64,000 bases of DNA. It comes from Bacteroidota bacterium. Lineage in GTDB: Bacteria > Bacteroidota > Ignavibacteria > UBA10030 > UBA8401. The notes beneath the pieces were generated by a model. The model searched no databases. It was given only the letters and a program-made list of their open reading frames with translations, and was not told where the DNA came from. Below are positions 7,134 through 51,870 of this stretch, one piece after another. The DNA is taken from positions 1,220-65,219 of the forward strand of contig JAUXTU010000057.1 of the NCBI GenBank assembly GCA_030679145.1, read 5' to 3'. The number at the start of each line of letters is the position of its first letter. Positions within the stretch are counted from its first letter, which is position 1. A program made the position numbers and the translations under genes.

Positions 7134-8519
7134 ATGACAATCTTACACGAAACGTACAAACAAGTCTTTAATCTACTCCAAGATTTCGCATTTTTGGTAG
7201 ATGGTTCAGCTCATATAATTGATATAAATTCAAAGGTCAAACAGCGGAACTTTACTCATGCAAATCTTATTGACTGCTTTTCTGAGGAAAGTAGAGCCCA
7301 GTTTAAGAGATCATTTCAAGACAAACCAATTACCTTTAGGACAGACTTCTTTTTTTCTGCGAAAGATCATTTATTCACCGAAGTAAATATTACACCACTG
7401 AATACAGAAAGAGAAGCAGTTTTTCTTGTTGTGGTGAAAGATATTACGGTTCAGCATGATAAAGAATTGGATCTTCTTCGTTTCTCTGAAGTGATACATC
7501 GAACGGTGAATCCTATTCAGATAACTAATCCAGAAGGTAAGATCATTTATGTCAACCCCGCGTATGTGAATATCAGCGGCTATTCAAGGGAAGAATTGAT
7601 TGGGAGAAATCCCAGTGTTTTGAATAGCGGTAAACATGGAAGTGATTTTTGGAAAAAAGTTTGGGCGAAGATTCTTACCGGTCAGCAATGGGTTGGTCAA
7701 ATACAAAATAAGCGAAAGTCGGGAGAATTGTTCCATACGGAACTTGTAATTTCTCCTATTGTTGACGAGCAAAAAAAAGTGATAGGATTTATGGGTGCTC
7801 ACAGGGATATTACTGAACAAAAGATCCTTGAACGTCAAGTTGTGCGCTCTCAGAAGATGGAAACATTCGGGACGCTTGCGGCGGGTATAGCACATGAAGT
7901 TGGGAATCCCCTGACATCAATTTCTGCCCTTGTTCAGTTAGTGCAAAGACAATCCAGTGATGATTTTGTGCAAGAGAAACTTGAATTAGTAAAGAATCAG
8001 ATCAACCGCATTTCAAAAATTCTTCGTGAGTTGGTTGATTTTTCCAGACCATCAACCCATGACATTAAAGATGTTAGCGTCAATTTGATCATACGAGAAG
8101 CACTTAATATTGTTCAGTACGGGAAAAAATCTCGCGCAACAGTGTTTGATGTTGCGTTGGAAGAAAATCTATCAATGGTCCACGCTGTTCCGGATCAATT
8201 ATTGCAGGTATATTTGAATATTTTAATGAACGCTGTAGATGCCTGCGAAGGAAAGCGTGGGCAGATTTTTGTTTCGAGTGCGGCTCGTGGAGAGTGTGTT
8301 GAAGCAGTATTTAAAGATAATGGATCGGGAATTTCGGAAAAGAACTTAGGAAAATTATTCGACCCATTCTTTACAACAAAAGAAGTTGGAAAAGGCACAG
8401 GTCTTGGTCTTTGGGTAAGTTTAGGAATTGTCAGAAATTTTGGAGGCGATATTTTTGTAGAAAGCGAAGAAGGAAAAAGCACAACGTTTACAGTACGATT
8501 ACCGGTTAAGGGAGCATAA
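7134..8519 (+). CDS. Cytoplasmic PAS-domain sensor histidine kinase
   Basis: PAS (IYVNPAY..ISGYSREELIGRNP), H-box AHEVGNPL, NA.DA, DNGSGI, FDPFFTTK.VGKGTGLGL; no TM helix seen. Confidence 0.9.
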   Translation: MTILHETYKQVFNLLQDFAFLVDGSAHIIDINSKVKQRNFTHANLIDCFSEESRAQFKRSFQDKPITFRTDFFFSAKDHLFTEVNITPLNTEREAVFLVVVKDITVQHDKELDLLRFSEVIHRTVNPIQITNPEGKIIYVNPAYVNISGYSREELIGRNPSVLNSGKHGSDFWKKVWAKILTGQQWVGQIQNKRKSGELFHTELVISPIVDEQKKVIGFMGAHRDITEQKILERQVVRSQKMETFGTLAAGIAHEVGNPLTSISALVQLVQRQSSDDFVQEKLELVKNQINRISKILRELVDFSRPSTHDIKDVSVNLIIREALNIVQYGKKSRATVFDVALEENLSMVHAVPDQLLQVYLNILMNAVDACEGKRGQIFVSSAARGECVEAVFKDNGSGISEKNLGKLFDPFFTTKEVGKGTGLGLWVSLGIVRNFGGDIFVESEEGKSTTFTVRLPVKGA

Positions 8520-9881
8520 ATGAAAAAAAAGATCTTGGTTGTTGATGATGAAGAGATCATCCGTGACTCAATAAGTTTTGTTCTTGAAAAGGAAGGATAC
8601 ACTGTCCGTAAAGCAGAGAATGGAGCAGTTGCATTAAAGATATTGAACGAAGGTTTATTCGATCTGGTAATCACCGATATTGAAATGCCGGAGCTTCGCG
8701 GACCTGAACTATTGGAAAGAATATCCGAACGTTTTCCGCAAACTTTTGTCATCATCATCACTGCATATGCATCAGTTGAAACTGCAGTTGCCGCAATACG
8801 CAAAGGAGCGTACGATTATCTCCTTAAGCCGATCGAATTCGATGATCTTATTTTTCGTATAAAAAAATTATTCGATTATAAAGAACTTGTCCTTGAAAAT
8901 ACGCTGCTTCGTCAGGAAGTGAACAGGAAATTCGATTTTTCATCCATTATCGGACAAAGCGAAGCAATGAAAAAGATCTTTTCTGATATTCAAAAGGTTG
9001 CACCGACAGAGGGCACAGTATTGATCACCGGAAAGAGTGGAACCGGAAAAGAACTTGTTGCACGCGCAATTCACACACACAGCCGCAGAAGTAATAAACG
9101 ATTTATTGCGATCAACTGTGGAGCAATTGTTGAGACATTGTTTGAAAGTGAATTGTTCGGTCATAAAAAAGGTTCGTTTACCGGTGCCACCAATGATAAA
9201 GATGGAGTTTTAAAGGCCGCTGAAGGTGGGACACTGTTATTGGATGAAATCAGCGAAATGCCTCTGCAGCTTCAGCCAAAATTGCTTCGCGCACTGGAAC
9301 AGCGTGAAATTACTCCGGTTGGAAGTAACGACGTGATCAACGTTAATGTTCGAATTGTCGCTGCAACAAATCGAAATTTAAAGGAAGAAATTGCAAAGGG
9401 GAAATTTCGCGAAGATCTGTTCTATCGTTTAAATGTTGTTGAGATTCATCTTCCGGAATTAAGTGAGCGTTCCGAAGATATTCCATTGCTGGTGAATTCA
9501 TTTATCACGAAATTCCGCGGAGAAATGGGAAAACCGATCAAAGGTATATCCAATCAGGCAATGAGTGCGTTGGTCAATCATCAATGGAAAGGGCAGATTC
9601 GGGAACTGCAAAATATTGTAGAACGTGCGATGATCTTCTGTGAAGCAGAGATGATTGATGTGCAGCATCTGCCGGAAGAGTTACAAGCAAGTGCGCAACT
9701 TTCTGTGATAGATTATTCTTCACAATCATTGAAAGACGCAGTACATATGTTCGAACGTCGTTATATTGAACAAAAGTTAAAACATCACAATGGTGATAAG
9801 GATAAAGTGGCTAAAGATCTTGGGCTTAGCTTGTCAACATTGTATCGAAAATTTGAGGAGCTAGGGATTCCTCTTAAATAA
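8520..9881 (+). CDS. Sigma54-dependent response regulator (NtrC/AtoC family)
   Basis: Receiver (VVDDE, DIEMP), GKSGTGKE, ESELFGH, GSFTGA, LDEISE, C-terminal Fis-type HTH. Confidence 0.93.
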   Translation: MKKKILVVDDEEIIRDSISFVLEKEGYTVRKAENGAVALKILNEGLFDLVITDIEMPELRGPELLERISERFPQTFVIIITAYASVETAVAAIRKGAYDYLLKPIEFDDLIFRIKKLFDYKELVLENTLLRQEVNRKFDFSSIIGQSEAMKKIFSDIQKVAPTEGTVLITGKSGTGKELVARAIHTHSRRSNKRFIAINCGAIVETLFESELFGHKKGSFTGATNDKDGVLKAAEGGTLLLDEISEMPLQLQPKLLRALEQREITPVGSNDVINVNVRIVAATNRNLKEEIAKGKFREDLFYRLNVVEIHLPELSERSEDIPLLVNSFITKFRGEMGKPIKGISNQAMSALVNHQWKGQIRELQNIVERAMIFCEAEMIDVQHLPEELQASAQLSVIDYSSQSLKDAVHMFERRYIEQKLKHHNGDKDKVAKDLGLSLSTLYRKFEELGIPLK

Positions 9882-43564: not shown

Positions 43565-43765
43565 ATGAAACGTAATGAAAAAACAAATTCCGTTTGTCCG
43601 AAGTGTAACACGGTATTTGAGTGCGGAATCTCTGCAGGAAAAAATTCTTGTTGGTGTTTTGGCTATCAAAGTCTTGTGGCACCTGAATATGGCGAAGGGT
43701 GTTTCTGTGAAAAATGTCTAAAAGAGTTTATAGAAAAACAACATGAGCAGAGCACGAGTAAATAA
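43565..43765 (+). CDS. Cysteine-rich CWC family protein
   Basis: CPKC...FEC......CWC.......C.C..CL. Confidence 0.85.
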   Translation: MKRNEKTNSVCPKCNTVFECGISAGKNSCWCFGYQSLVAPEYGEGCFCEKCLKEFIEKQHEQSTSK

Positions 43766-43795
43766 TATTTTCAAATTGATTGTCGATTGTATTCT

Positions 43796-44161
43796 ATGAA
43801 AAAAGTCCTTGTTGTAGATGATGCTGAAGCAAATAGATTGCTTCTTGGAGCTATCCTTAAAAAATTGAAACTATCGGTTGAATATGCTGAAGATGGTGAT
43901 GAAGCAGTTCATAAATTCCTTCAGCTACAGCCCGATGTTGTCTTTATGGATCATATTTTGCCAACTAAAAATGGCGCTGACGCACTGCGGGAAATGAAGG
44001 ATCAGGATATAAAGTTCGTCGGCTTTTTGATGTCTGCATACTCTGACCCGGATCAAATTAAAATTATCTTTGAGTCTTCAGGTGCTGAGGAATTTATCCA
44101 TAAACCGATTGAATTTGTTAAGATTCAGAAATTGTTGAAGAAATACGGCATTATTTCTTGA
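43796..44161 (+). CDS. Single-domain response regulator (CheY-like)
   Basis: VVDD, VFMD phospho-acceptor, MSA, HKP; ATG 43796. Confidence 0.9.
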   Translation: MKKVLVVDDAEANRLLLGAILKKLKLSVEYAEDGDEAVHKFLQLQPDVVFMDHILPTKNGADALREMKDQDIKFVGFLMSAYSDPDQIKIIFESSGAEEFIHKPIEFVKIQKLLKKYGIIS

Positions 44162-44463
44162 TGTTAAAGTCAGTTATTCTTTGCGGCTATGTCAATTTTA
44201 AAAACATGAGATGATTCAATCTTAATTCAGATTCCATTTATTTATACTCTCAACGCGGCCATGATGAAGCGCTCAAAAATAGGTAATCTAAGTAAATAGA
44301 ACTTATAGATATTTTTTTGAAAATCATTTCGAGCAGCATATTATTATATCAGACTTTTTACTCTGAATCCAAAAAGATTGTCTCCCAAGGGTGTGATTTT
44401 TATTGTGCGACATTGTTTGTAATAGTTATTTTCCCGACATTGACTCACTAATCGGAGGTGTTG

Positions 44464-45222
44464 ATGGGACAACAACAACAGATTTTGATCGTGCTCGGAA
44501 TGTTAATTGTTTCAATTGCAGTTTCTACGGGAATAAAAGCATTTCAAGAAAACTCTGAAGCGTTATACCTTTCGCAAATTGAGCAAGATCTCCAATATCT
44601 GGCTACAAAAGCCATGGAATATTATAAATCACCGGAGCATTTAGGGGGTGGCGATAATTCTTTTTCCCGAATTCCAAGTGGAACCACTGATCTGAAAAAA
44701 TATTTTGGAGTAAGTGATAATTCCAGTGGTGGTAATTCTTCTGCAACATATCAAATAACAAGTGCTTCCCCTTCAAGCCTCACCATTCAAGCAGATGGTC
44801 TTATTCCTCTTCGAACAGAAAATTTTCCACGATATACCGTCACGATTACAGGTACTTCATACAAAATAGAAAAGACAAATGTAGCAGCTAGTTCTTCAGA
44901 TTCTCCAGTTACACCAACAACACCGGTTACTCCTGTTGCACCAGTAACTCCAGTTACACCAACAACACCGGTTACTCCTGTTGCACCAGTAACTCCAGTT
45001 ACACCAACAACACCAGTTGCACCAGTAACTCCTGTTGCACCAACAACACCGGTTACTCCAGTAGCACCAGTGACTCCAGTTACACCAACAACACCAGTTG
45101 CACCGGTTACTCCAGTTGCACCAGTCGCTCCAGCTACACCAGTTAAACCTTCTAAACCATCAAAGCCATCAAAACCAGCTAAACCATCAAAGCCAGAAAA
45201 GCCAGAAAAAAAAGGAAAATAA
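44464..45222 (+). CDS. Pilin-like membrane-anchored protein with a Pro-X-X repeat tail
   Basis: GGAGG RBS; N-terminal [23 protein letters not shown] hydrophobic helix; ~110-aa globular part; then 34 Pro-X-X triplets. Confidence 0.6.
44905..45210 (+). repeat. Coding tandem repeat: 34 degenerate 9-bp units with a higher-order 45-bp unit
   Basis: CCAGTTACACCAACAACACCGGTTACTCCTGTTGCACCAGTAACT at 44905-44949 and 44950-44994, then variants encoding PVT/PTT/PVA and later PSK/PEK. Confidence 0.95.
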
Positions 45223-45326: not shown

Positions 45327-45746
45327 ATGAAACCACTTTATCATTCTCTTTTTAATATTTTTTGGGATGGAGTATTCATTATACTATCGGCTATTCTTTT
45401 ATTTGAACTTCCCGCTTATATTTATGCTCCAACGGATCAGAAATTTATGGATTACCAGCTCTTTCTTATCCCCCTCATCATCTTGAGTATAATGGTTTTT
45501 TATTCTTTAGCACTACGATTTATCGTCATTTATCCATCCGTGGTAGTATTTAAAAAACCATTTGGTCTTACCAATAGAAAAATTTCTATCCCCAAAAAGA
45601 ACATAACACAGGTTGAGATCGAGTTAAACCAACGCCCGAAACTTACGGTGTATCATCATTCTGAAGGGACGTCAATTATTCTCTATGATAATGAAGTGGC
45701 ACAGATTAAAAAAGCCTTTGCACAAATTGACATTAATGTTGACTAA
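45327..45746 (+). CDS. Hypothetical membrane protein (two TM helices plus a small beta domain)
   Basis: Two hydrophobic segments followed by a PH-like strand pattern; AAGGA RBS. Confidence 0.55.
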   Translation: MKPLYHSLFNIFWDGVFIILSAILLFELPAYIYAPTDQKFMDYQLFLIPLIILSIMVFYSLALRFIVIYPSVVVFKKPFGLTNRKISIPKKNITQVEIELNQRPKLTVYHHSEGTSIILYDNEVAQIKKAFAQIDINVD

Positions 45747-46035: not shown

Positions 46036-46401
46036 ATGAAAAAAGCATTAATTGTCGATGATTCCGCTTACAATCGAACTTTGCTTCATGCTATCCTTCG
46101 GAAAAAAGGTCTATCCGTTGAAACTTCCGATAATGGGGAAGATGCAATTGCAAAGTTCACGCTTGTTAAGCCCGATATTGTATTTTTGGATTATATAATG
46201 CCTAAAAAATCCGGTGTTGAAGCATTGAGTGAAATGAAAAAATTGAATCCGGATTTTATTGGTATTATGCTCACATCCATTTCCGCAACGGAAGATGTGC
46301 AAGCGGCGAAAACGGCAGGAGCAAATGGGTATATTCTAAAACCATATGGAGCCGAAAAGATATACGAAGTATTGAAAAAATTTAATCTCATCGAAGAATA
46401 A
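46036..46401 (+). CDS. Single-domain response regulator (CheY-like), module 1
   Basis: IVDD, VFLD, MLTS, LKP. Confidence 0.92.
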   Translation: MKKALIVDDSAYNRTLLHAILRKKGLSVETSDNGEDAIAKFTLVKPDIVFLDYIMPKKSGVEALSEMKKLNPDFIGIMLTSISATEDVQAAKTAGANGYILKPYGAEKIYEVLKKFNLIEE

Positions 46402-46730
46402 TGGTCCCCAATTACGCTTGCCCGACATGCAATAAAAAATATTTTGATCCTCCATTTCTTTGTACCGATTGCGGAACAGAAATGGGGTGGAAATGTTCAT
46501 CGTGCAATCATGGCAATCCGTTAATATACAGACGTTGCGGCAAATGTGGAATGCCGATACCGATGGTGATTGCAGCGATGATAAAAGAAGGAAAACAATT
46601 ACGTATCATCAACATCCCTCAGTACAACGAAACCGATATCGGTGAGTTATTAGAAGAAGGTGAACGGCTCGTTGCCAAAAAAGAAATTCAAACGCTTACC
46701 CAAGTTGACCTTGATAAACTTTTCGAATGA
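46401..46730 (+). CDS. Double zinc-ribbon protein, module 1
   Basis: CPTC, CTDC, CSSC, CGKC; C-terminus TLTQVDLDKLFE; TAATG coupling to the regulator. Confidence 0.8.
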   Translation: MVPNYACPTCNKKYFDPPFLCTDCGTEMGWKCSSCNHGNPLIYRRCGKCGMPIPMVIAAMIKEGKQLRIINIPQYNETDIGELLEEGERLVAKKEIQTLTQVDLDKLFE

Positions 46731-46733
46731 CCT

Positions 46734-48437
46734 ATGTTTAACCGCGAAGATCTTCTCTTTCGAGACTACTGTGTCACCAATAAGATTCTAACGGAAGATC
46801 GTTGGAAACAATTTGTCGATACTGTTACCAATTATGGTATGAACGATGGTTTTTCTAAAGCACTCATTGAATTCAACTTCTTTTCCCCCGAAGATCTTGT
46901 CCACCATATCGGCAAAGCGTTCACACTTCCGGTAATGAAATTATATTCTGAGACAAGTTCTGCACCGCATGAGATGCTTTCCGTTACTTTCATCCGAAAA
47001 CACCGTGTGATCCCGATGTTTTTGTTTGGCAATGAATTGACAGTAGCATTTATTGATCCGCCGTATAAAAATGTGCTTGATGAGCTCGCAAAATTGACGC
47101 AAAAGAAAATTGTTCCGGTTATTTCTGCTGTAAATGATTTTGATGAAACATTGAAGATACAACAAGGCGGATTTGATGAACTAAAACGGATTGCAAGTGC
47201 GATTGATATTCAAAAATTTGATGTAGTTCGAACAGGTGAAAAAGAAGTTGATCGTCTCGAGAAAATCGGAGAATTTCCGCCATTGATCATGTTGATCGAT
47301 GAAATTTTCCTGCGAGCGATCAAGATCGGAGCGAGTGATATTCACATTGAGCCGTTCGAGGATGAATTACGACTTCGGTTCCGGCTTGATGGTGTGTTGC
47401 AGCGTGTCGCTTCCTTTCCGCAAAAAATTGCGGAAGGCATGGCTGCAGTGATCAAGACAAAAGCGGATATGGACATCTTTGAGAAAAAGAAACCTCAAGA
47501 TGGACGTATATCCTTGACGCTTGAGACGCGAGCATTTGATCTTCGTGTAAATTCGCTTCCAACGGTGAACGGTGAGAAGATCGTTCTGCGTATTCTCAAT
47601 AAGAGTTCCATTAATAAAAAGATCAACGATCTCGGGCTTGCTACTCATAATCTTGCAATGCTCAAACATTTGCTGAACCAGCCGAATGGGCTGCTTCTTG
47701 TAACCGGTCCGACCGGAAGCGGGAAAACGACAACATTGTATGCTGCGATCAATCATATCAAATCTGTTGAAAAGAATATTGTTACGGTAGAGAATCCTGT
47801 CGAATATCTTGTTGATACAGTTAATCAGGTGAATGTCGACCCTGACCGCGACTTAACTTTTGCTAGTGCGTTGCGGGCTATTTTGCGGCAAGATCCGGAT
47901 GTAGTTTTAGTCGGAGAAATCCGAGATTCTGAAACGGGAATTACTGCAACGGAAGCCGCGTTGACCGGACATTTGGTGTTGAGTACTCTTCATACAAACG
48001 ATGCGGTTGGTGCAATTCCCCGGTTGATCAATATGGGAGTTCCATCCTATTGGCTTGCACCGGCTTTGATTGGAGTTGTTGCGCAGCGATTGGTACGCAA
48101 GATTTGTGAGTACTGTAAAGATGAATATCAACCGACTGAAGAAGTATTTTATCGAGCCGGTTTAAGTAGTCTTTCAGGAAGAGCACCATTTTATCGTGGA
48201 ACAGGATGTAAAAGATGTAATTTCCAGGGATATAGCGGCAGGCTTGCTATCCACGAAGTGATTATTGTAAATGATGAGATTCAAAACTTGATCTATCAAA
48301 ATGAAACAACTACCAAGATCCGTGAAGCGGCTTTAAAGAGCGGGTTCCGAGATCTTCGTTTTGACGGATTAAAAAAAGTAATTGCCGGTTTAACGACACT
48401 GGATGAGATCCAACGAGTAACCCGTTCAGCATTGTAA
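46734..48437 (+). CDS. PilB/GspE-family secretion ATPase, module 1
   Basis: ASDIHIEP, PQDGR, GPTGSGKTTTLY, RQDPDVVLVGEIRD, GHLVLSTLHTN, C..C/C..C zinc motif. Confidence 0.92.
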   Translation: MFNREDLLFRDYCVTNKILTEDRWKQFVDTVTNYGMNDGFSKALIEFNFFSPEDLVHHIGKAFTLPVMKLYSETSSAPHEMLSVTFIRKHRVIPMFLFGNELTVAFIDPPYKNVLDELAKLTQKKIVPVISAVNDFDETLKIQQGGFDELKRIASAIDIQKFDVVRTGEKEVDRLEKIGEFPPLIMLIDEIFLRAIKIGASDIHIEPFEDELRLRFRLDGVLQRVASFPQKIAEGMAAVIKTKADMDIFEKKKPQDGRISLTLETRAFDLRVNSLPTVNGEKIVLRILNKSSINKKINDLGLATHNLAMLKHLLNQPNGLLLVTGPTGSGKTTTLYAAINHIKSVEKNIVTVENPVEYLVDTVNQVNVDPDRDLTFASALRAILRQDPDVVLVGEIRDSETGITATEAALTGHLVLSTLHTNDAVGAIPRLINMGVPSYWLAPALIGVVAQRLVRKICEYCKDEYQPTEEVFYRAGLSSLSGRAPFYRGTGCKRCNFQGYSGRLAIHEVIIVNDEIQNLIYQNETTTKIREAALKSGFRDLRFDGLKKVIAGLTTLDEIQRVTRSAL

Positions 48438-48453
48438 TCAAAGAAATCAAAAT

Positions 48454-48843
48454 ATGAAAATCGAAGATGTTTCTGTGTTAGTCGTTGATGATTCCGATCA
48501 TATCCGGACATTGTTTGCAATGACGCTTAAAAAGATGGGGATCATTAAAGTGCATTATGCTGCTGACGGCGCAGAAGGGTTGCTCCGTTTCAACAGCGAG
48601 AAACCGACCATTACATTTCTCGACAATATGCTGCCAAAACTTTCCGGTATGGAAGTTCTTAAAGAGATCCGCGCAGTAAAATCTGATGCAATTGTTGTTA
48701 TTGTTTCAGCAGTTTCAAGTATTGAAGTAGTACAGGAAGCGAAACGGAAAGGTGCAAGCTATTACCTTGTGAAACCGTATATGCCTTCAAAGATTGTAGA
48801 TCTCATCCAGAAATTATTGAATGTAGAAGGGAATGCACTATGA
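48454..48843 (+). CDS. Single-domain response regulator (CheY-like), module 2
   Basis: VVDD, TFLD, IVSA, VKP. Confidence 0.92.
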   Translation: MKIEDVSVLVVDDSDHIRTLFAMTLKKMGIIKVHYAADGAEGLLRFNSEKPTITFLDNMLPKLSGMEVLKEIRAVKSDAIVVIVSAVSSIEVVQEAKRKGASYYLVKPYMPSKIVDLIQKLLNVEGNAL

Positions 48844-49160
48844 TGTGTCCTTCGTGCGGGAATGATAATCCGCGCACAACGCCGGATTGTATTACATGTG
48901 GGAACAAGTTAACCGTGATTCGATGTAAATGCGGGTTCTTCAATTCTCTTATGGATTCATTTTGCGGTTCTTGTGGTAAACAATTAATGAAATCCAATAG
49001 CATTTCACGCACACAACGGTATGAATCTGGTTCCAATATCATCGCTCCATTTACAGAACAAGAATTAATGCGTATTGTTGAAGTTCATCAAATGCAGAGT
49101 CAGATAGATCAAAACAGCAATGTGGTATCGCAAATTGATATAGACAAACTTTTCGAATAA
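48840..49160 (+). CDS. Double zinc-ribbon protein, module 2
   Basis: CPSC, CITC, CKC, CGSC; C-terminus VVSQIDIDKLFE; ATGA coupling to the regulator. Confidence 0.8.
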   Translation: MMCPSCGNDNPRTTPDCITCGNKLTVIRCKCGFFNSLMDSFCGSCGKQLMKSNSISRTQRYESGSNIIAPFTEQELMRIVEVHQMQSQIDQNSNVVSQIDIDKLFE

Positions 49161-49165
49161 TCATT

Positions 49166-50860
49166 ATGATCAGAGATGAAGATATCCGTTTGTCAAAATT
49201 CCTTTTTACCAAAGGATATATTGATAAGGTGAAGTTTGACAAATTCAACCGGATGATGGCTGAGGCAGAAGCAAAACAATGTGTTGAAGCGCTTGTTGAC
49301 GGGTTAGGTGTGAATGATGAAATTGTTGGTACCGCAATATCCGAAGAATTTAAGATACCATATGTCACCTTATCTTCTTCACTCATCACTTTAAATAGTC
49401 CATCGTTAAAAGAAGATTTTCTAAAAAAATATCAAGCGCTTCCCATTATCCGAAGCGGTGTTGAACTGACAGTTGCTTTTGTAAACCCGCCGTATAAGGA
49501 TGTACTGGATGAAATGCGGCGTGACGCAAAAGTGTTCGTCGTTCCGGTTGCAGTGAAACGCTCTGCATTTGATGCCATTACTAAGAAGGTTAATATTGAA
49601 GAAGTTAATGAATTTCTCCAGATACCTTCTAAAGTTCAATTGGAAACGTTTGATATAAGCAAGCGCAATAAGGAAAAAATAAATGAACTGCTCAAGTCCG
49701 GGAGGTTACCGAATGCCGATGTACTGATCGACGAGATCATCATTACGGCGATCAAAAGTGGAGCAACAGATGTTTATTTTGAGCCAATGGAGCAAGAATT
49801 TCACGTTCGCTATAATATTGACAGTGTTCTTGAACATGCAATCTCGTTGCCCAAAGAAATGACTGAATCATTGTGCAATGTTATGCGTTCCCGCGGCAGC
49901 CTTAATATGTTTGATAAAAAGAAGGCTCAAGACGGACGATATTCTACAAGCTACGGGAAATTCCAGTTTGATATGCGTGTGAGTACATTGCCGACTGTGG
50001 AAGGTGAACGATTCTCAATTCGCATCCTTAAAAAAAATAACCGCATTGTTGATATCAATGAGATTGGATTCTCTCATGAAAATTTATCGCTTGTACGATA
50101 TCTCCTTAATCGACCGCGTGGGCTTCTTGTAATTGCGGGTCCTTCAGCATCCGGCAAAACAACAACAGTGTACGGCTGTATGAATGAACTTAAAGATTCA
50201 CAAAAAAATATTATTACGGTAGAAAACCCTGTTGAATATCGTTTGGAATTTGCAAGTCAAGTTCAGGTTGATGTTGATCAGAAATTAGATTATGCATCAT
50301 CGATGAGGGCAGTATTGCGCCAGCATCCGGATCTGATCTTTCTTGGTGAGATACGGGACGCTGAAGCCGGAAGCGCCGCAGCCGAAGCGGCATTAACCGG
50401 AACAATGGTTGTTACTACCATTCTTTCCAGTGATGCGCTTTCATGCATTCCAAGAATGACAAATTTTGGAATTCCTCCTTCGTGGCTTGCGTCAACCTTG
50501 AACGGAATTATTTATCAACAGTTGGTCCGTAAAATTTGCACTCATTGCAAAGAGAGGTATAAACCGACCAAACACATGTTGAATGCCGCCGGTCTTCATC
50601 AGTTAGAAGATTCGATCATGTTATATCGCGGTGCCGGATGCGAAGTATGCGGAGGTGACGGACATTTGGGAAGAACGGCAATCCATGAAATATTGGTTGT
50701 TGATGAAGAGCTAAAAGATTTGATCTTCCATCAAGCATCTCCGGTAAAAGTAAAAGAAGCTGCAACTAAAAAAGGATTTGAGTCTATACGATTTGATGCC
50801 GTTAAGAAACTGGTTTCGGGTGTCATTGCACTTGAAGAATATTTACGAGTGATTGGGTAA
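49166..50860 (+). CDS. PilB/GspE-family ATPase, module 2 (divergent His boxes)
   Basis: AQDGR, GPSASGKTTTVY, RQHPDLIFLGEIRD, GTMVVTTILSS, C..C/C..C. Confidence 0.88.
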   Translation: MIRDEDIRLSKFLFTKGYIDKVKFDKFNRMMAEAEAKQCVEALVDGLGVNDEIVGTAISEEFKIPYVTLSSSLITLNSPSLKEDFLKKYQALPIIRSGVELTVAFVNPPYKDVLDEMRRDAKVFVVPVAVKRSAFDAITKKVNIEEVNEFLQIPSKVQLETFDISKRNKEKINELLKSGRLPNADVLIDEIIITAIKSGATDVYFEPMEQEFHVRYNIDSVLEHAISLPKEMTESLCNVMRSRGSLNMFDKKKAQDGRYSTSYGKFQFDMRVSTLPTVEGERFSIRILKKNNRIVDINEIGFSHENLSLVRYLLNRPRGLLVIAGPSASGKTTTVYGCMNELKDSQKNIITVENPVEYRLEFASQVQVDVDQKLDYASSMRAVLRQHPDLIFLGEIRDAEAGSAAAEAALTGTMVVTTILSSDALSCIPRMTNFGIPPSWLASTLNGIIYQQLVRKICTHCKERYKPTKHMLNAAGLHQLEDSIMLYRGAGCEVCGGDGHLGRTAIHEILVVDEELKDLIFHQASPVKVKEAATKKGFESIRFDAVKKLVSGVIALEEYLRVIG

Positions 50861-50883
50861 AAACACGCAAATAGTAAAATTTG

Positions 50884-50911
50884 GGGACGCTCAGAAAGAG
50901 CGTCCCTTTTT
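50884..50911 (+). terminator. Terminator after the second ATPase gene
   Basis: GGGACGCTC-AGAAA-GAGCGTCCC-TTTTT. Confidence 0.75.
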
Positions 50912-50925
50912 ATTTAATGAACTAT

Positions 50926-51870
50926 ATGAATAGAACTGATCGATTATTTGCAATCCTTCTCTATATCCAATCCAATCCTCGATGTCGTGCAGAAGATTTA
51001 GCGAACCGATTTGATATTACTAAGCGGACAGTCTATCGAGATATTTCCGCATTGATGGAAGCTGATGTCCCCGTCATCGGAAAAGCGGGGGAAGGATATT
51101 CAATTGAAGATGGATATTTTCTTCCACCAGTCAGTTTTACAAAGGATGAAGCATTATTACTGATCCTCGGTGCAGATGCTGTGGGACAGCATTTTGATGC
51201 GCAGTATAAAAAAGCGGCACGTTCTGCAGAGAACAAAATTCATGCATCACTTTCAAAAGACCTTAAAAAAGAGGTTGCGTATTTGAAAAGTTATATCAGT
51301 TTTTTTTCCGGCATTAACAGTGAGAAAGGAAAACTGAACGATGCAATGCAGAAGATTCGCCGCGCAATTATGGAAAAGAAAAGTCTTGCATTCCGGTATT
51401 ATAAACGATATTCAGATACCACTGAGCCAATGGTGCGTGAGGTCGATCCGTATGCGGTGATGAACTTTTACGGCAATTGGGCAATGTCCGGTTATGATCA
51501 CCTTCGAAAGGATCTGCGAATGTTCCGGTTGGATAGAATGGAAACAGTGATGGTAACTTCTAAAGCATTTGAACGCCCGAAGAACTTCCGTTTTTCACAA
51601 TTGGCAAAAGAAGATCAATCACAGAAATTTATTTATCAAGTAAAAATTTCGCGTGACATTTTTCGATGGGTAAAAGAACAGCCGCCGTATAAGATCATCA
51701 AGACTCAAACAAAAAAGGATCACGTCATTCTTACGATTGAATCCTCAAATGAAAATTCAATCATTACCTGGCTGATTCGGTGGGGTGATAAAGCTGAGGC
51801 ACTCTCTCCCTCAACATTTCGCGAGAATGTAAAATCTACCCTCTCTAAACTTCTTACAATCTACAAATAA
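50926..51870 (+). CDS. YafY-family HTH-WYL transcriptional regulator
   Basis: MNRTDRL, TKRTVYRDISAL, GEGY, LPPVSFT.DEA, WYL domain (R.VDPY...W...GYDHLRKD.RMFRLDRM); start moved to ATG 50926. Confidence 0.92.
   Translation: MNRTDRLFAILLYIQSNPRCRAEDLANRFDITKRTVYRDISALMEADVPVIGKAGEGYSIEDGYFLPPVSFTKDEALLLILGADAVGQHFDAQYKKAARSAENKIHASLSKDLKKEVAYLKSYISFFSGINSEKGKLNDAMQKIRRAIMEKKSLAFRYYKRYSDTTEPMVREVDPYAVMNFYGNWAMSGYDHLRKDLRMFRLDRMETVMVTSKAFERPKNFRFSQLAKEDQSQKFIYQVKISRDIFRWVKEQPPYKIIKTQTKKDHVILTIESSNENSIITWLIRWGDKAEALSPSTFRENVKSTLSKLLTIYK

Follow-up and report, generated by a model that had tools for sequence, protein, structure and literature searches.

A C-terminal peptide resembling CheY-docking sequences in zinc-ribbon proteins encoded beside CheY-like receivers and PilB/GspE-family ATPases

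What does a short peptide bind when it forms the end of two otherwise divergent proteins encoded in the same gene cluster? This question arises in a 64,000-nucleotide stretch of DNA (hereafter, the window) from Bacteroidota bacterium assembly GCA_030679145.1 (GTDB lineage Ignavibacteria; UBA10030; UBA8401), which covers positions 1,220 to 65,219 of contig JAUXTU010000057.1. As judged from the list of open reading frames (ORFs) and from Pfam, the plus strand of the window carries two tandem units, each consisting of genes for a receiver, a double zinc-ribbon protein, and an ATPase of the PilB/GspE family. The two zinc-ribbon proteins, ZnR1 and ZnR2, are only ~23% identical overall, but the ends of their genes translate to TLTQVDLDKLFE (46692-46730, with the stop codon) and VVSQIDIDKLFE (49122-49160, likewise). 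An earlier reading of the letters without database searches (the sequence-only reading) had noticed this shared tail, which our translations confirm, and had likened it to the peptides of FliM and CheZ that bind phosphorylated CheY. Here, we describe a family of zinc-ribbon proteins that nearly all end in this motif. From its sequence, we lean towards a role as an adaptor, in which the flexible C-terminal helix would capture the phosphorylated receiver and the protein would deliver it to the ATPase.

All genes of both units lie on the plus strand. In the first, the single-domain CheY-like receiver RR1 (121 amino acids [aa]; 46036..46401; Pfam Response_reg, E = 3.9e-25) precedes ZnR1 (109 aa; 46401..46730) and the hexameric ATPase ATP1 (567 aa; 46734..48437; Pfam T2SSE, E = 9.5e-128, plus MshEN). 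The second repeats this order with the single-domain CheY-like receiver RR2 (129 aa; 48454..48843; Response_reg, E = 1.7e-23), ZnR2 (106 aa; 48840..49160), and the paralogous ATPase ATP2 (564 aa; 49166..50860; T2SSE, E = 8.8e-95, plus MshEN). A CheY-like receiver is thus encoded immediately upstream of each ribbon gene, just as the sequence-only reading had it, and the paired genes overlap: the TAA stop of RR1 and the ATG of ZnR1 share one base (TAATG), and RR2 and ZnR2 overlap by ATGA. The ATPase genes follow the ribbon genes after 3 bases in unit 1 and 5 bases in unit 2. On the face of the sequence, this packing is arranged for translational coupling.

The zinc-ribbon proteins are small and have few recognizable parts. 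The ribbons run from Cys7 to Cys49 in ZnR1 (46419-46547) and from Cys3 to Cys45 in ZnR2 (48846-48974). ZnR2 passes the Pfam double zinc-ribbon model DZR (PF12773; 27.7 bits, cut-off 27.3), and ZnR1 keeps its eight cysteines as two ribbons despite a score below the cut-off (22.1 bits). Pfam and NCBIfam scans of both proteins returned zinc-ribbon models only and no FliM middle, FliN, CheC, or CheZ domain. The likeness to FliM and CheZ therefore exists at the level of a motif; as whole proteins, ZnR1 and ZnR2 fall outside the FliM, FliY, and CheZ families. No Pfam or NCBIfam model spans the full-length ribbon protein, and the source annotations of the family read “hypothetical protein” or “zinc ribbon domain-containing protein.”

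To place these proteins in a family, we used a profile search of 1.84 billion representative proteins, which yielded ~100 full-length representatives of 100-125 residues, nearly all with the same end motif. When 90 representatives that are 21-40% identical to ZnR2 were aligned, the only invariant columns were seven cysteines and the glutamine of the tail. The tail logo in this alignment is [VLI][ST]Q[DE][DE][IL]DX[LI]F, with G or E next; Q occurs in 90/90, D in 82/90, and F in 88/90 sequences. Only the zinc-binding cysteines are better conserved than the tail. Most members have the end of the motif within 1-5 residues of the C-terminus, but up to 12 or more can follow the F. Closer to the window, all 11 homologues of ZnR1, in which the eight cysteines are invariant, and all 32 homologues of ZnR2, in which IDKLF is invariant, have the tail. 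The linkers between the ribbons and the tail are of low complexity and vary in length, and they enclose one further conserved helix, [ST]xx[DE][LI]xEL[LI]. Some relatives have lost a ribbon, keeping only the first (L029, L031, and P0188) or only the second (the third copy of L016), and these too retain the helix and the tail. The sequence-only reading had staked its proposal on conservation of the tail in homologues, and on that point, it was right. That the tail is a conserved docking motif is, on this pattern of conservation, close to certain.

Is the likeness to CheY-docking peptides more than an impression? The N-terminal peptide of FliM (FliM-N) and the C-terminal peptide of CheZ (CheZ-C) are the two classical, experimentally defined docking peptides for phosphorylated CheY (CheY-P). 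The Escherichia coli sequences that had been quoted for them, LSQAEIDALL (FliM residues 6-15) and SQDQVDDLL (CheZ residues 201-209), are found on the real genes. We built a scoring matrix from 81 family tails only and scanned it on E. coli K-12 proteins taken from the genome. The best site in FliM (334 aa) was at residue 6 (LSQAEIDALLN, 16.2 bits), and the best site in CheZ (214 aa) was at residue 200 (ASQDQVDDLLD, 13.4 bits). A matrix that contains nothing but ribbon tails therefore ranks the docking peptide first in both proteins, in agreement with the proposed likeness. The maximum in eight control E. coli proteins from the same loci was 7.6 bits. In random sequence, the frequency per position is ~2e-6 at 16 bits and ~5e-6 to 2e-5 at 12-14 bits, and no site reaches 13.4 bits in 199,014 residues of non-family proteins in the fetched loci. 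The tails of the window themselves (as short sequences, NSNVVSQIDIDKLFE and KEIQTLTQVDLDKLFE) score 24.7 bits in ZnR1 (LTQVDLDKLFE, 46695..46727) and 27.1 bits in ZnR2 (VSQIDIDKLFE, 49125..49157). Because a six-frame scan of the 64-kb window reached at least 10 bits at only three positions, namely these two tails and one match in a methylase, the shared tail is not due to chance.

The match also extends to the residues that touch CheY. In 1F4V, FliM L6 contacts CheY A90 (backbone O) and I95, Q8 contacts V108 (backbone N), I11 and L14 each contact I95, A99, and Y106, D12 contacts K119, and N16 contacts Y106 and K122 (PMC3774744 Table 3). These six FliM residues correspond to tail positions -2, 0, +3, +6, +4, and +8, respectively (in the order L6, Q8, I11, L14, D12, N16), and the CheY-contact positions include the most conserved positions of the tail. 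The ribbon tail thus has the features of the docking class in its sequence pattern, its terminal position on a flexible linker, its contact positions, and a cognate CheY-type receiver. As we read the sequences, the significance lies in the double match at the functional sites of FliM and CheZ.

Position by position, FliM-N (and also the FliY N-terminus), with L-S-Q-x-E-I-D-x-L-L, is nearly the same as the ribbon tail, and it likewise sits at a protein terminus on a flexible linker. However, the FliM motif is N-terminal and ends in L, whereas the ribbon tail is C-terminal and ends in F. The carrier is different as well, a zinc-ribbon protein of ~110 residues without a FliM, FliN, or CheC domain, as is the machine, which is the flagellar C-ring for FliM and a PilB/GspE-type ATPase for the ribbon module. 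CheZ-C (E. coli residues 200-214), a CheY-docking peptide, resembles the tail in that it is acidic and helical and sits at the C-terminus behind a flexible linker. Still, CheZ has a phosphatase four-helix bundle, and a CheZ-like catalytic role is unsupported for the ribbon proteins because they have no phosphatase domain or motif. Neither they nor the conserved neighborhood contain a CheZ, CheC, or CheX domain. The sequence-only reading had offered adaptor, sink, or phosphatase tether as possible roles of the ribbon protein; the evidence favors the adaptor, and the phosphatase tether drops out.

It had also pointed to an amphipathic look-alike of the tail farther upstream in each protein. Both segments are present and conserved in orthologues: YNETDIGELL in ZnR1 (46623..46652; orthologue consensus IPQYxETxIxELLEEGE) and FTEQELMRIV in ZnR2 (49050..49079; F71, E75, L76, and M77 invariant in 32 orthologues). 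As second docking sites, however, they do not hold up, since they score only 3.6 and 3.2 bits by the tail matrix and have neither the Q nor the D; each is instead the start of a separate conserved helix. An AlphaFold2 (AF2) model of ZnR2 agrees with this division of the protein. It places the ribbons at residues 1-50 (predicted local confidence [pLDDT] ~72-77), a disordered linker at 53-68 (pLDDT <50), a helix at 73-93, and the tail as a separate, two-turn short helix at 98-104 (pLDDT ~59-65). With a predicted template modeling score (pTM) of 0.30, the relative arrangement of these parts is undefined. From the N-terminus onward, the predicted anatomy is one or two ribbons, a disordered linker that varies, the conserved helix, a second and short linker, and at the end a helix of two turns. 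In the model, the tail looks like a docking peptide, being a separate short helix after a flexible stretch, with the disordered linker further upstream.

The gene neighborhood of the family is nearly constant. We gathered 29 loci from one genome per species and, for metagenomes, used a narrower alignment (A7), for which 80 loci were fetched and 19 had true family members. In total, 58 family genes in 43 loci were compared. A PilB-like ATPase gene lies just downstream of every family gene with enough flanking sequence, and a receiver gene adjoins every such family gene except in L036, in which the ribbon gene comes after that of a histidine kinase. The taxa named for these loci comprise Bacteroidota/Ignavibacteria, Myxococcota, Nitrospirota, and candidate division KSB1. 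The usual order is receiver, ribbon, ATPase; it is ribbon, ATPase, receiver in a myxococcotal locus (L019) and in Thermodesulfovibrio (L114). All close relatives of the window organism have the double unit together with a third stand-alone receiver, RR0, described below. One “Bacteroidetes bacterium” locus (L016, 7190-14481) has three tandem receiver-ribbon-ATPase units, and the third ribbon protein there, which has lost the first ribbon, has the C-terminus LNQDEIDKFFAQL.

Kinases often adjoin the module, and they are not of one kind. At L024 and L028, the flanking genes encode PAS/GAF-HisKA-HATPase kinases, some of which include a receiver domain. In L115 and L116, the order is HATPase_c kinase, receiver, ribbon, ATPase, and a HATPase_c kinase also adjoins L036. 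In GC-rich soil loci, Hpt-containing CheA-like kinases (Hpt plus HATPase_c) directly follow the ATPase (L048:4285-6252 and L046:2519-4288). Because CheA-like and PAS/GAF-HisKA kinases occur at different loci, the module appears to be plugged into different kinds of kinase. At one metagenomic locus, the gene overlapping the ribbon start encodes a receiver fused to a GGDEF diguanylate cyclase (L032:4994-6004), and a stand-alone receiver follows the ATPase. This fusion hints at a link of the module to local cyclic di-GMP (c-di-GMP) production for the MshEN-type N-domain of the ATPase. No pilus or secretion structural genes were adjacent in any locus.

Double zinc ribbons as such are not confined to this family. 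Pfam DZR proteins, found as the N-termini of large adenylate cyclase/AAA regulators, have the same N-terminal CxxC-CxxC-CxxC-CxxC ribbon pair as the ZnR proteins. Those of P0157, P0121, and the Vampirovibrio loci L018, L022, and L025 have neither the middle helix nor the tail and, unlike the ZnR family, do not adjoin a receiver and a PilB-like ATPase. In these and in L026 (Vampirovibrio and cyanobacterial loci, plus P0157 and P0121), the ribbon part is the N-terminus of proteins of 1100-1300 residues, which in P0157 and P0121 we judged by eye to be adenylate-cyclase/AAA-type regulators.

The receivers of the module are CheY-like and, by residue conservation, predicted to be phosphorylatable. 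The nearest solved relatives of RR1 are the CheY of Pyrococcus horikoshii (6er7, 83 bits) and that of Thermotoga maritima (1tmy/4iga, 71 bits); for RR2, the nearest is the T. maritima protein (62 bits). One of these entries, 4iga, is the complex of T. maritima CheY with the FliM N-terminus. Further relatives of both receivers are 6ekg and 6ekh, deposited as “Chemotaxis protein CheY,” which we take to be a Methanococcus protein, with Spo0F next. In E. coli CheY numbering, RR1 retains the equivalents of D12, D13, D57, T87, Y106, and K109. Across 20 non-redundant module receivers, the equivalents of D12, D13, D57, T/S87, and K109 are kept, Y/F106 is present in 19/20, and V/I95 in 18/20.

These observations suggest how the module might work. 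In the reading we favor, the tail's partner is, somewhat better than evenly likely on sequence grounds, the alpha4-beta5-alpha5 face of the receiver. Much as FliM-N and CheZ-C settle on CheY, the terminal helix would dock in this groove of its cognate receiver (RR1 for ZnR1 and RR2 for ZnR2), and would do so more tightly once the receiver is phosphorylated. The ribbon and middle helix, which are less conserved and lineage-specific, would hold the protein on its own ATPase. The tail would then serve as a fishing line that concentrates phosphorylated receiver at the ATPase, and the concentrated receiver would switch the activity, assembly, or location of the motor. Which protein the tail binds, that phosphorylation strengthens this binding, and what follows for the ATPase are inferences. 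A constant tail with a constant receiver surface, and a variable ribbon and helix with a variable ATPase N-domain, would fit this division of labor.

Known systems offer parallels for parts of this proposal. CheY-P reaches the flagellar switch via the EIDALL peptide and reaches the archaellum via the adaptor CheF, and a tethering role has been reported for FliM-N (PMC9126983). The role proposed for the ribbon tail would be like that of FliM-N, which captures a phosphorylated single-domain receiver and raises its local concentration at the motor (PMC9126983). Archaeal CheF follows the same logic as the proposed adaptor, in that a small, dedicated protein links CheY-P to the archaellum, a type IV pilus-like machine powered by the PilB/FlaI superfamily (PMC9126983). 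However, CheF has no sequence relationship to the ribbon proteins, and it contacts CheY close to the phosphorylation site, using a folded dimeric domain rather than an EIDALL-type peptide in the alpha4-alpha5 groove (PMC9126983). Closer to the pilus, the stand-alone receivers EmvR (PMC11973254) and DrdR (PMC13507683) regulate PilB directly, binding it and changing its ATPase activity. PilZ-FimX, EmvR, DrdR, the PATAN-REC proteins PixG/PixE, and PilG/PilH are small proteins or lone receivers that bind or control the pilus extension ATPase (PMC11656802, PMC11973254, PMC13507683), a role akin to the one proposed for the module. In all of these, the receiver or cofactor touches PilB directly, with no intervening zinc-ribbon protein or FliM-like peptide described, whereas the module has an obligatory third member, the ribbon gene. 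Neither a review of PilB cofactors (PMC11656802) nor our literature search mentions a zinc-ribbon adaptor or a FliM-like peptide in the control of pilus or secretion ATPases. Judged by sequence, what we describe would be a known docking principle carried by a new kind of protein and directed at another class of motor.

Several observations weigh against the receiver as the partner of the tail, or against too literal a comparison with chemotaxis. The module receivers are probably not chemotaxis CheYs in the strict sense, because most of the kinases beside them are classical sensor kinases and not CheA, unlike in the FliM system. Two residues of E. coli CheY that contact FliM, K119 and A99, are not kept in the module receivers, which have V/L/I at 119 and K/Q/R at 99; the exact contacts must therefore differ from those in E. 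coli CheY. The motif is also not unique in type. The methylase match in the window (VTQDRINRLVE at 39172) scores 16.5 bits although it is unrelated and due to chance. Moreover, a profile search of the Protein Data Bank (PDB) with a 13-column tail alignment did not return FliM or CheZ, giving instead generic helix starts in RNA-recognition-motif (RRM) proteins, Hsp70, and lactate dehydrogenase at E = 0.3-2. The tail is an N-capped acidic amphipathic helix, a type of motif that is not exclusive to CheY docking. Among the FliM entries of the PDB, only Salmonella FliM carries the N-terminus, and the FliM scanned with the matrix was that of E. coli. Gene order cannot tell which partner the tail has, because ATPase and receiver accompany the ribbon gene with equal constancy. 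Finally, the best 150 representatives and 60 word-index matches included no protein in which the ribbon module is naturally fused to a receiver or an ATPase; the long matches were cyclase or AAA proteins having the ribbons alone in common.

One of these objections loses its force on closer comparison. Position 115 of the module receivers is K/R in 18/20 and position 122 is K/R in half, and T. maritima CheY, with R115, A119, and K122, shows the same pattern. The absence of K119 is therefore no argument against FliM-type docking.

Because gene order is silent on the partner, the ATPase must be considered in its own right. ATP1 scores 551 bits with the NCBIfam PilB model (cut-off 675.65) and 525.5 bits with GspE (cut-off 630.25), and ATP2 scores 401.8 and 397 bits, so that both fall below the equivalog cut-offs. 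By sequence, they belong to the T2SSE superfamily as a divergent subfamily outside the PilB and GspE equivalogs. ATP1 has Walker A, Walker B, and the His box (TGHLVLSTLHTND), as do ATP1-type relatives. In ATP2, the corresponding His box reads TGTMVVTTILSSD, with both histidines lost, and this loss is kept across the ATP2 lineage (compared in L016:10321-12015, L016:12787-14481, L029:10201-11895, and L031:10250-11944). The L029 ATPase also has no Walker A lysine and a degenerate Walker B, and in the KSB1 locus L028, both Walker B and the His box are degenerate. Such proteins may be pseudo-ATPases, either inactive or regulatory, with an active paralogue as their counterpart. Mean pairwise identity is 0.46 for the catalytic part of the ATPases, 0.34 for the receivers, and 0.24 for the ATPase N-domain (the N-terminal 180 residues), which is the least conserved part of the module. 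Pfam MshEN covers only residues 80-140 of ATP1 and 62-138 of ATP2. The c-di-GMP-binding MshEN domain has two RLGxx(L/V/I)(L/V/I)xxG(L/V/I)(L/V/I)xxxxLxxxLxxQ motifs (PMC11656802), and by eye, the RLG and Q residues of this motif were not seen in the first 60 residues of the ATPases.

Could the tail bind the ATPase itself? The ribbon protein would then be an ATPase cofactor, its tail resting on the MshEN-like N-domain or the hexamer core, which would leave the receiver to act either on the ribbon domain or straight on the ATPase. The ATPase gene does follow within 3-5 bases of the ribbon gene in the window and is adjacent at every locus with enough flank; small PilB cofactors such as PilZ and FimX are known (PMC11656802); and EmvR and DrdR bind PilB without an adaptor. 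At an identity of 0.46, the catalytic part could even offer the tail a constant pocket. Yet the N-domain is a poor fit for a nearly invariant peptide, given how little of it is conserved, and the ATP1 and ATP2 types have diverged strongly, up to the loss of the His box, whereas the tails of the neighboring ribbon proteins are nearly identical. Binding to the ATPase would also leave the match to CheY-docking peptides at the CheY-contact residues unexplained. We therefore regard this alternative as unlikely, if still worth keeping in view, while noting that the comparison of receiver surface and ATPase N-domain conservation gives only a mild preference for the receiver.

A less specific explanation would be that the tail is a generic acidic amphipathic helix for self-association, or for packing on the protein's own middle helix or ribbon in autoinhibition or folding, and that its likeness to FliM-N is convergence. 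The tail-like strings in RRM proteins, Hsp70, and lactate dehydrogenase and the chance match in the window speak for this, and the second conserved helix nearby could pair with the tail. However, the Q, D, and F of the tail are as conserved as the zinc ligands at 21-40% identity, while the linkers are free to differ in both length and composition, a pattern that marks a docking motif for a conserved external partner. Nor does AF2, at the scores given above, place the tail with confidence against the remainder of the protein, and we consider a generic helix improbable.

Still less probable, in our estimation, is recruitment of a factor encoded elsewhere, such as a MinD/FlhG-type ATPase, a kinase, a protease adaptor, or the sliding clamp. 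FlhG has been reported to bind the EIDAL region of FliM/FliY. A terminal site and the spacing Q-x-x-[IL]-x-x-[LI]-F are common to several classes of docking peptide, and the spacing resembles clamp- and PCNA-binding motifs. Distant partners must also exist, since the window encodes neither the cognate kinase nor the machine that the ATPases would drive. However, no candidate of this kind recurs beside the module at any of the loci, a DNA-replication reading of the tail has no support from gene context, and the residues that can follow the F (up to 12 or more) mean that the tail does not need the free C-terminal carboxylate of a degron. A clamp- or PIP-box-like reading was set aside on gene context, and a membrane-targeting helix or C-terminal degron is out because the tail is acidic and tolerates extra residues after the F.

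The surroundings of the two units hold a third receiver and several other genes, all on the plus strand where strand is noted here. RR0 (124 aa; 43787..44161, plus strand; Response_reg, E = 1.1e-19) stands alone, without a ribbon or ATPase gene of its own. It is a companion of the double triad in all cases, placed either upstream after the gene for a Cys_rich_CWC protein or downstream before that for a WYL regulator. In the window, the Cys_rich_CWC protein (66 aa; 43565..43765, plus strand; PF14375, E = 6e-8) lies upstream, and a homologue is found 5′ of the cluster in L001-L006, L008, L009, and L011-L014. The WYL-domain transcription regulator (50881..51870, plus strand; Pfam HTH_11, WYL, and WCX) lies downstream, and the same gene is found 3′ of the cluster in L001, L002, L007, L009, L011-L014, and L031. 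RR0 has the same groove residues as the other receivers and may conceivably compete with them or serve as a phosphate sink.

Between RR0 and RR1, the window carries two inserted genes, neither of which is present in the closest relatives (L003, L004, and L006), where RR0 is directly 5′ of RR1. The first (44458-45222) encodes 254 residues with a hydrophobic, pilin-like N-terminal helix whose sequence includes AMEYY and a C-terminus of tandem TPVTPVAPV-type and PSK repeats, with DNA repeats at 44903-45205; Pfam and NCBIfam scans of this product gave no match. The second (45327-45746) encodes a 139-residue membrane protein, also with no match. A type III restriction-modification pair (N6_N4_Mtase and ResIII) lies 5′ of the cluster at 38062-42059, and it is the methylase of this pair that holds the chance match to the tail matrix. 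No kinase neighbors the module in the window, nor does the window encode the machine that the ATPases would drive. Its only other two-component genes, a PAS-HisKA sensor kinase and an NtrC-type sigma-54 activator at 7134-9881, are ~36 kb from the module and have no evident tie to it.

Stand-alone receivers are one of the largest classes of response regulator. To our knowledge, their output mechanism is known for a few cases only, of which the flagellar switch is the classic one. We tentatively suggest, at somewhat less than even confidence, that receiver, ribbon protein, and ATPase form a widespread, undescribed output module in which a ribbon adaptor with a FliM-type capture peptide couples phosphorylation of a stand-alone receiver to motors of the PilB/GspE family. 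By analogy, the module would do for type IV pilus or type II secretion motors what FliM-N does for the flagellum and CheF for the archaellum. Where modules are doubled or tripled, their adaptors could allow the competing receivers RR0, RR1, and RR2 to choose between an active ATPase and its His-box-less, probably inactive paralogue. Pairs of intact and His-box-less ATPases raise the question of whether pseudo-ATPases act as regulators of such motors. If the tail does dock the phosphorylated receiver, the docking principle of FliM and CheZ would have been reused outside flagellar chemotaxis on a new carrier protein, and a searchable sequence signature would predict two-component-controlled PilB/GspE-type ATPases in several poorly studied phyla.

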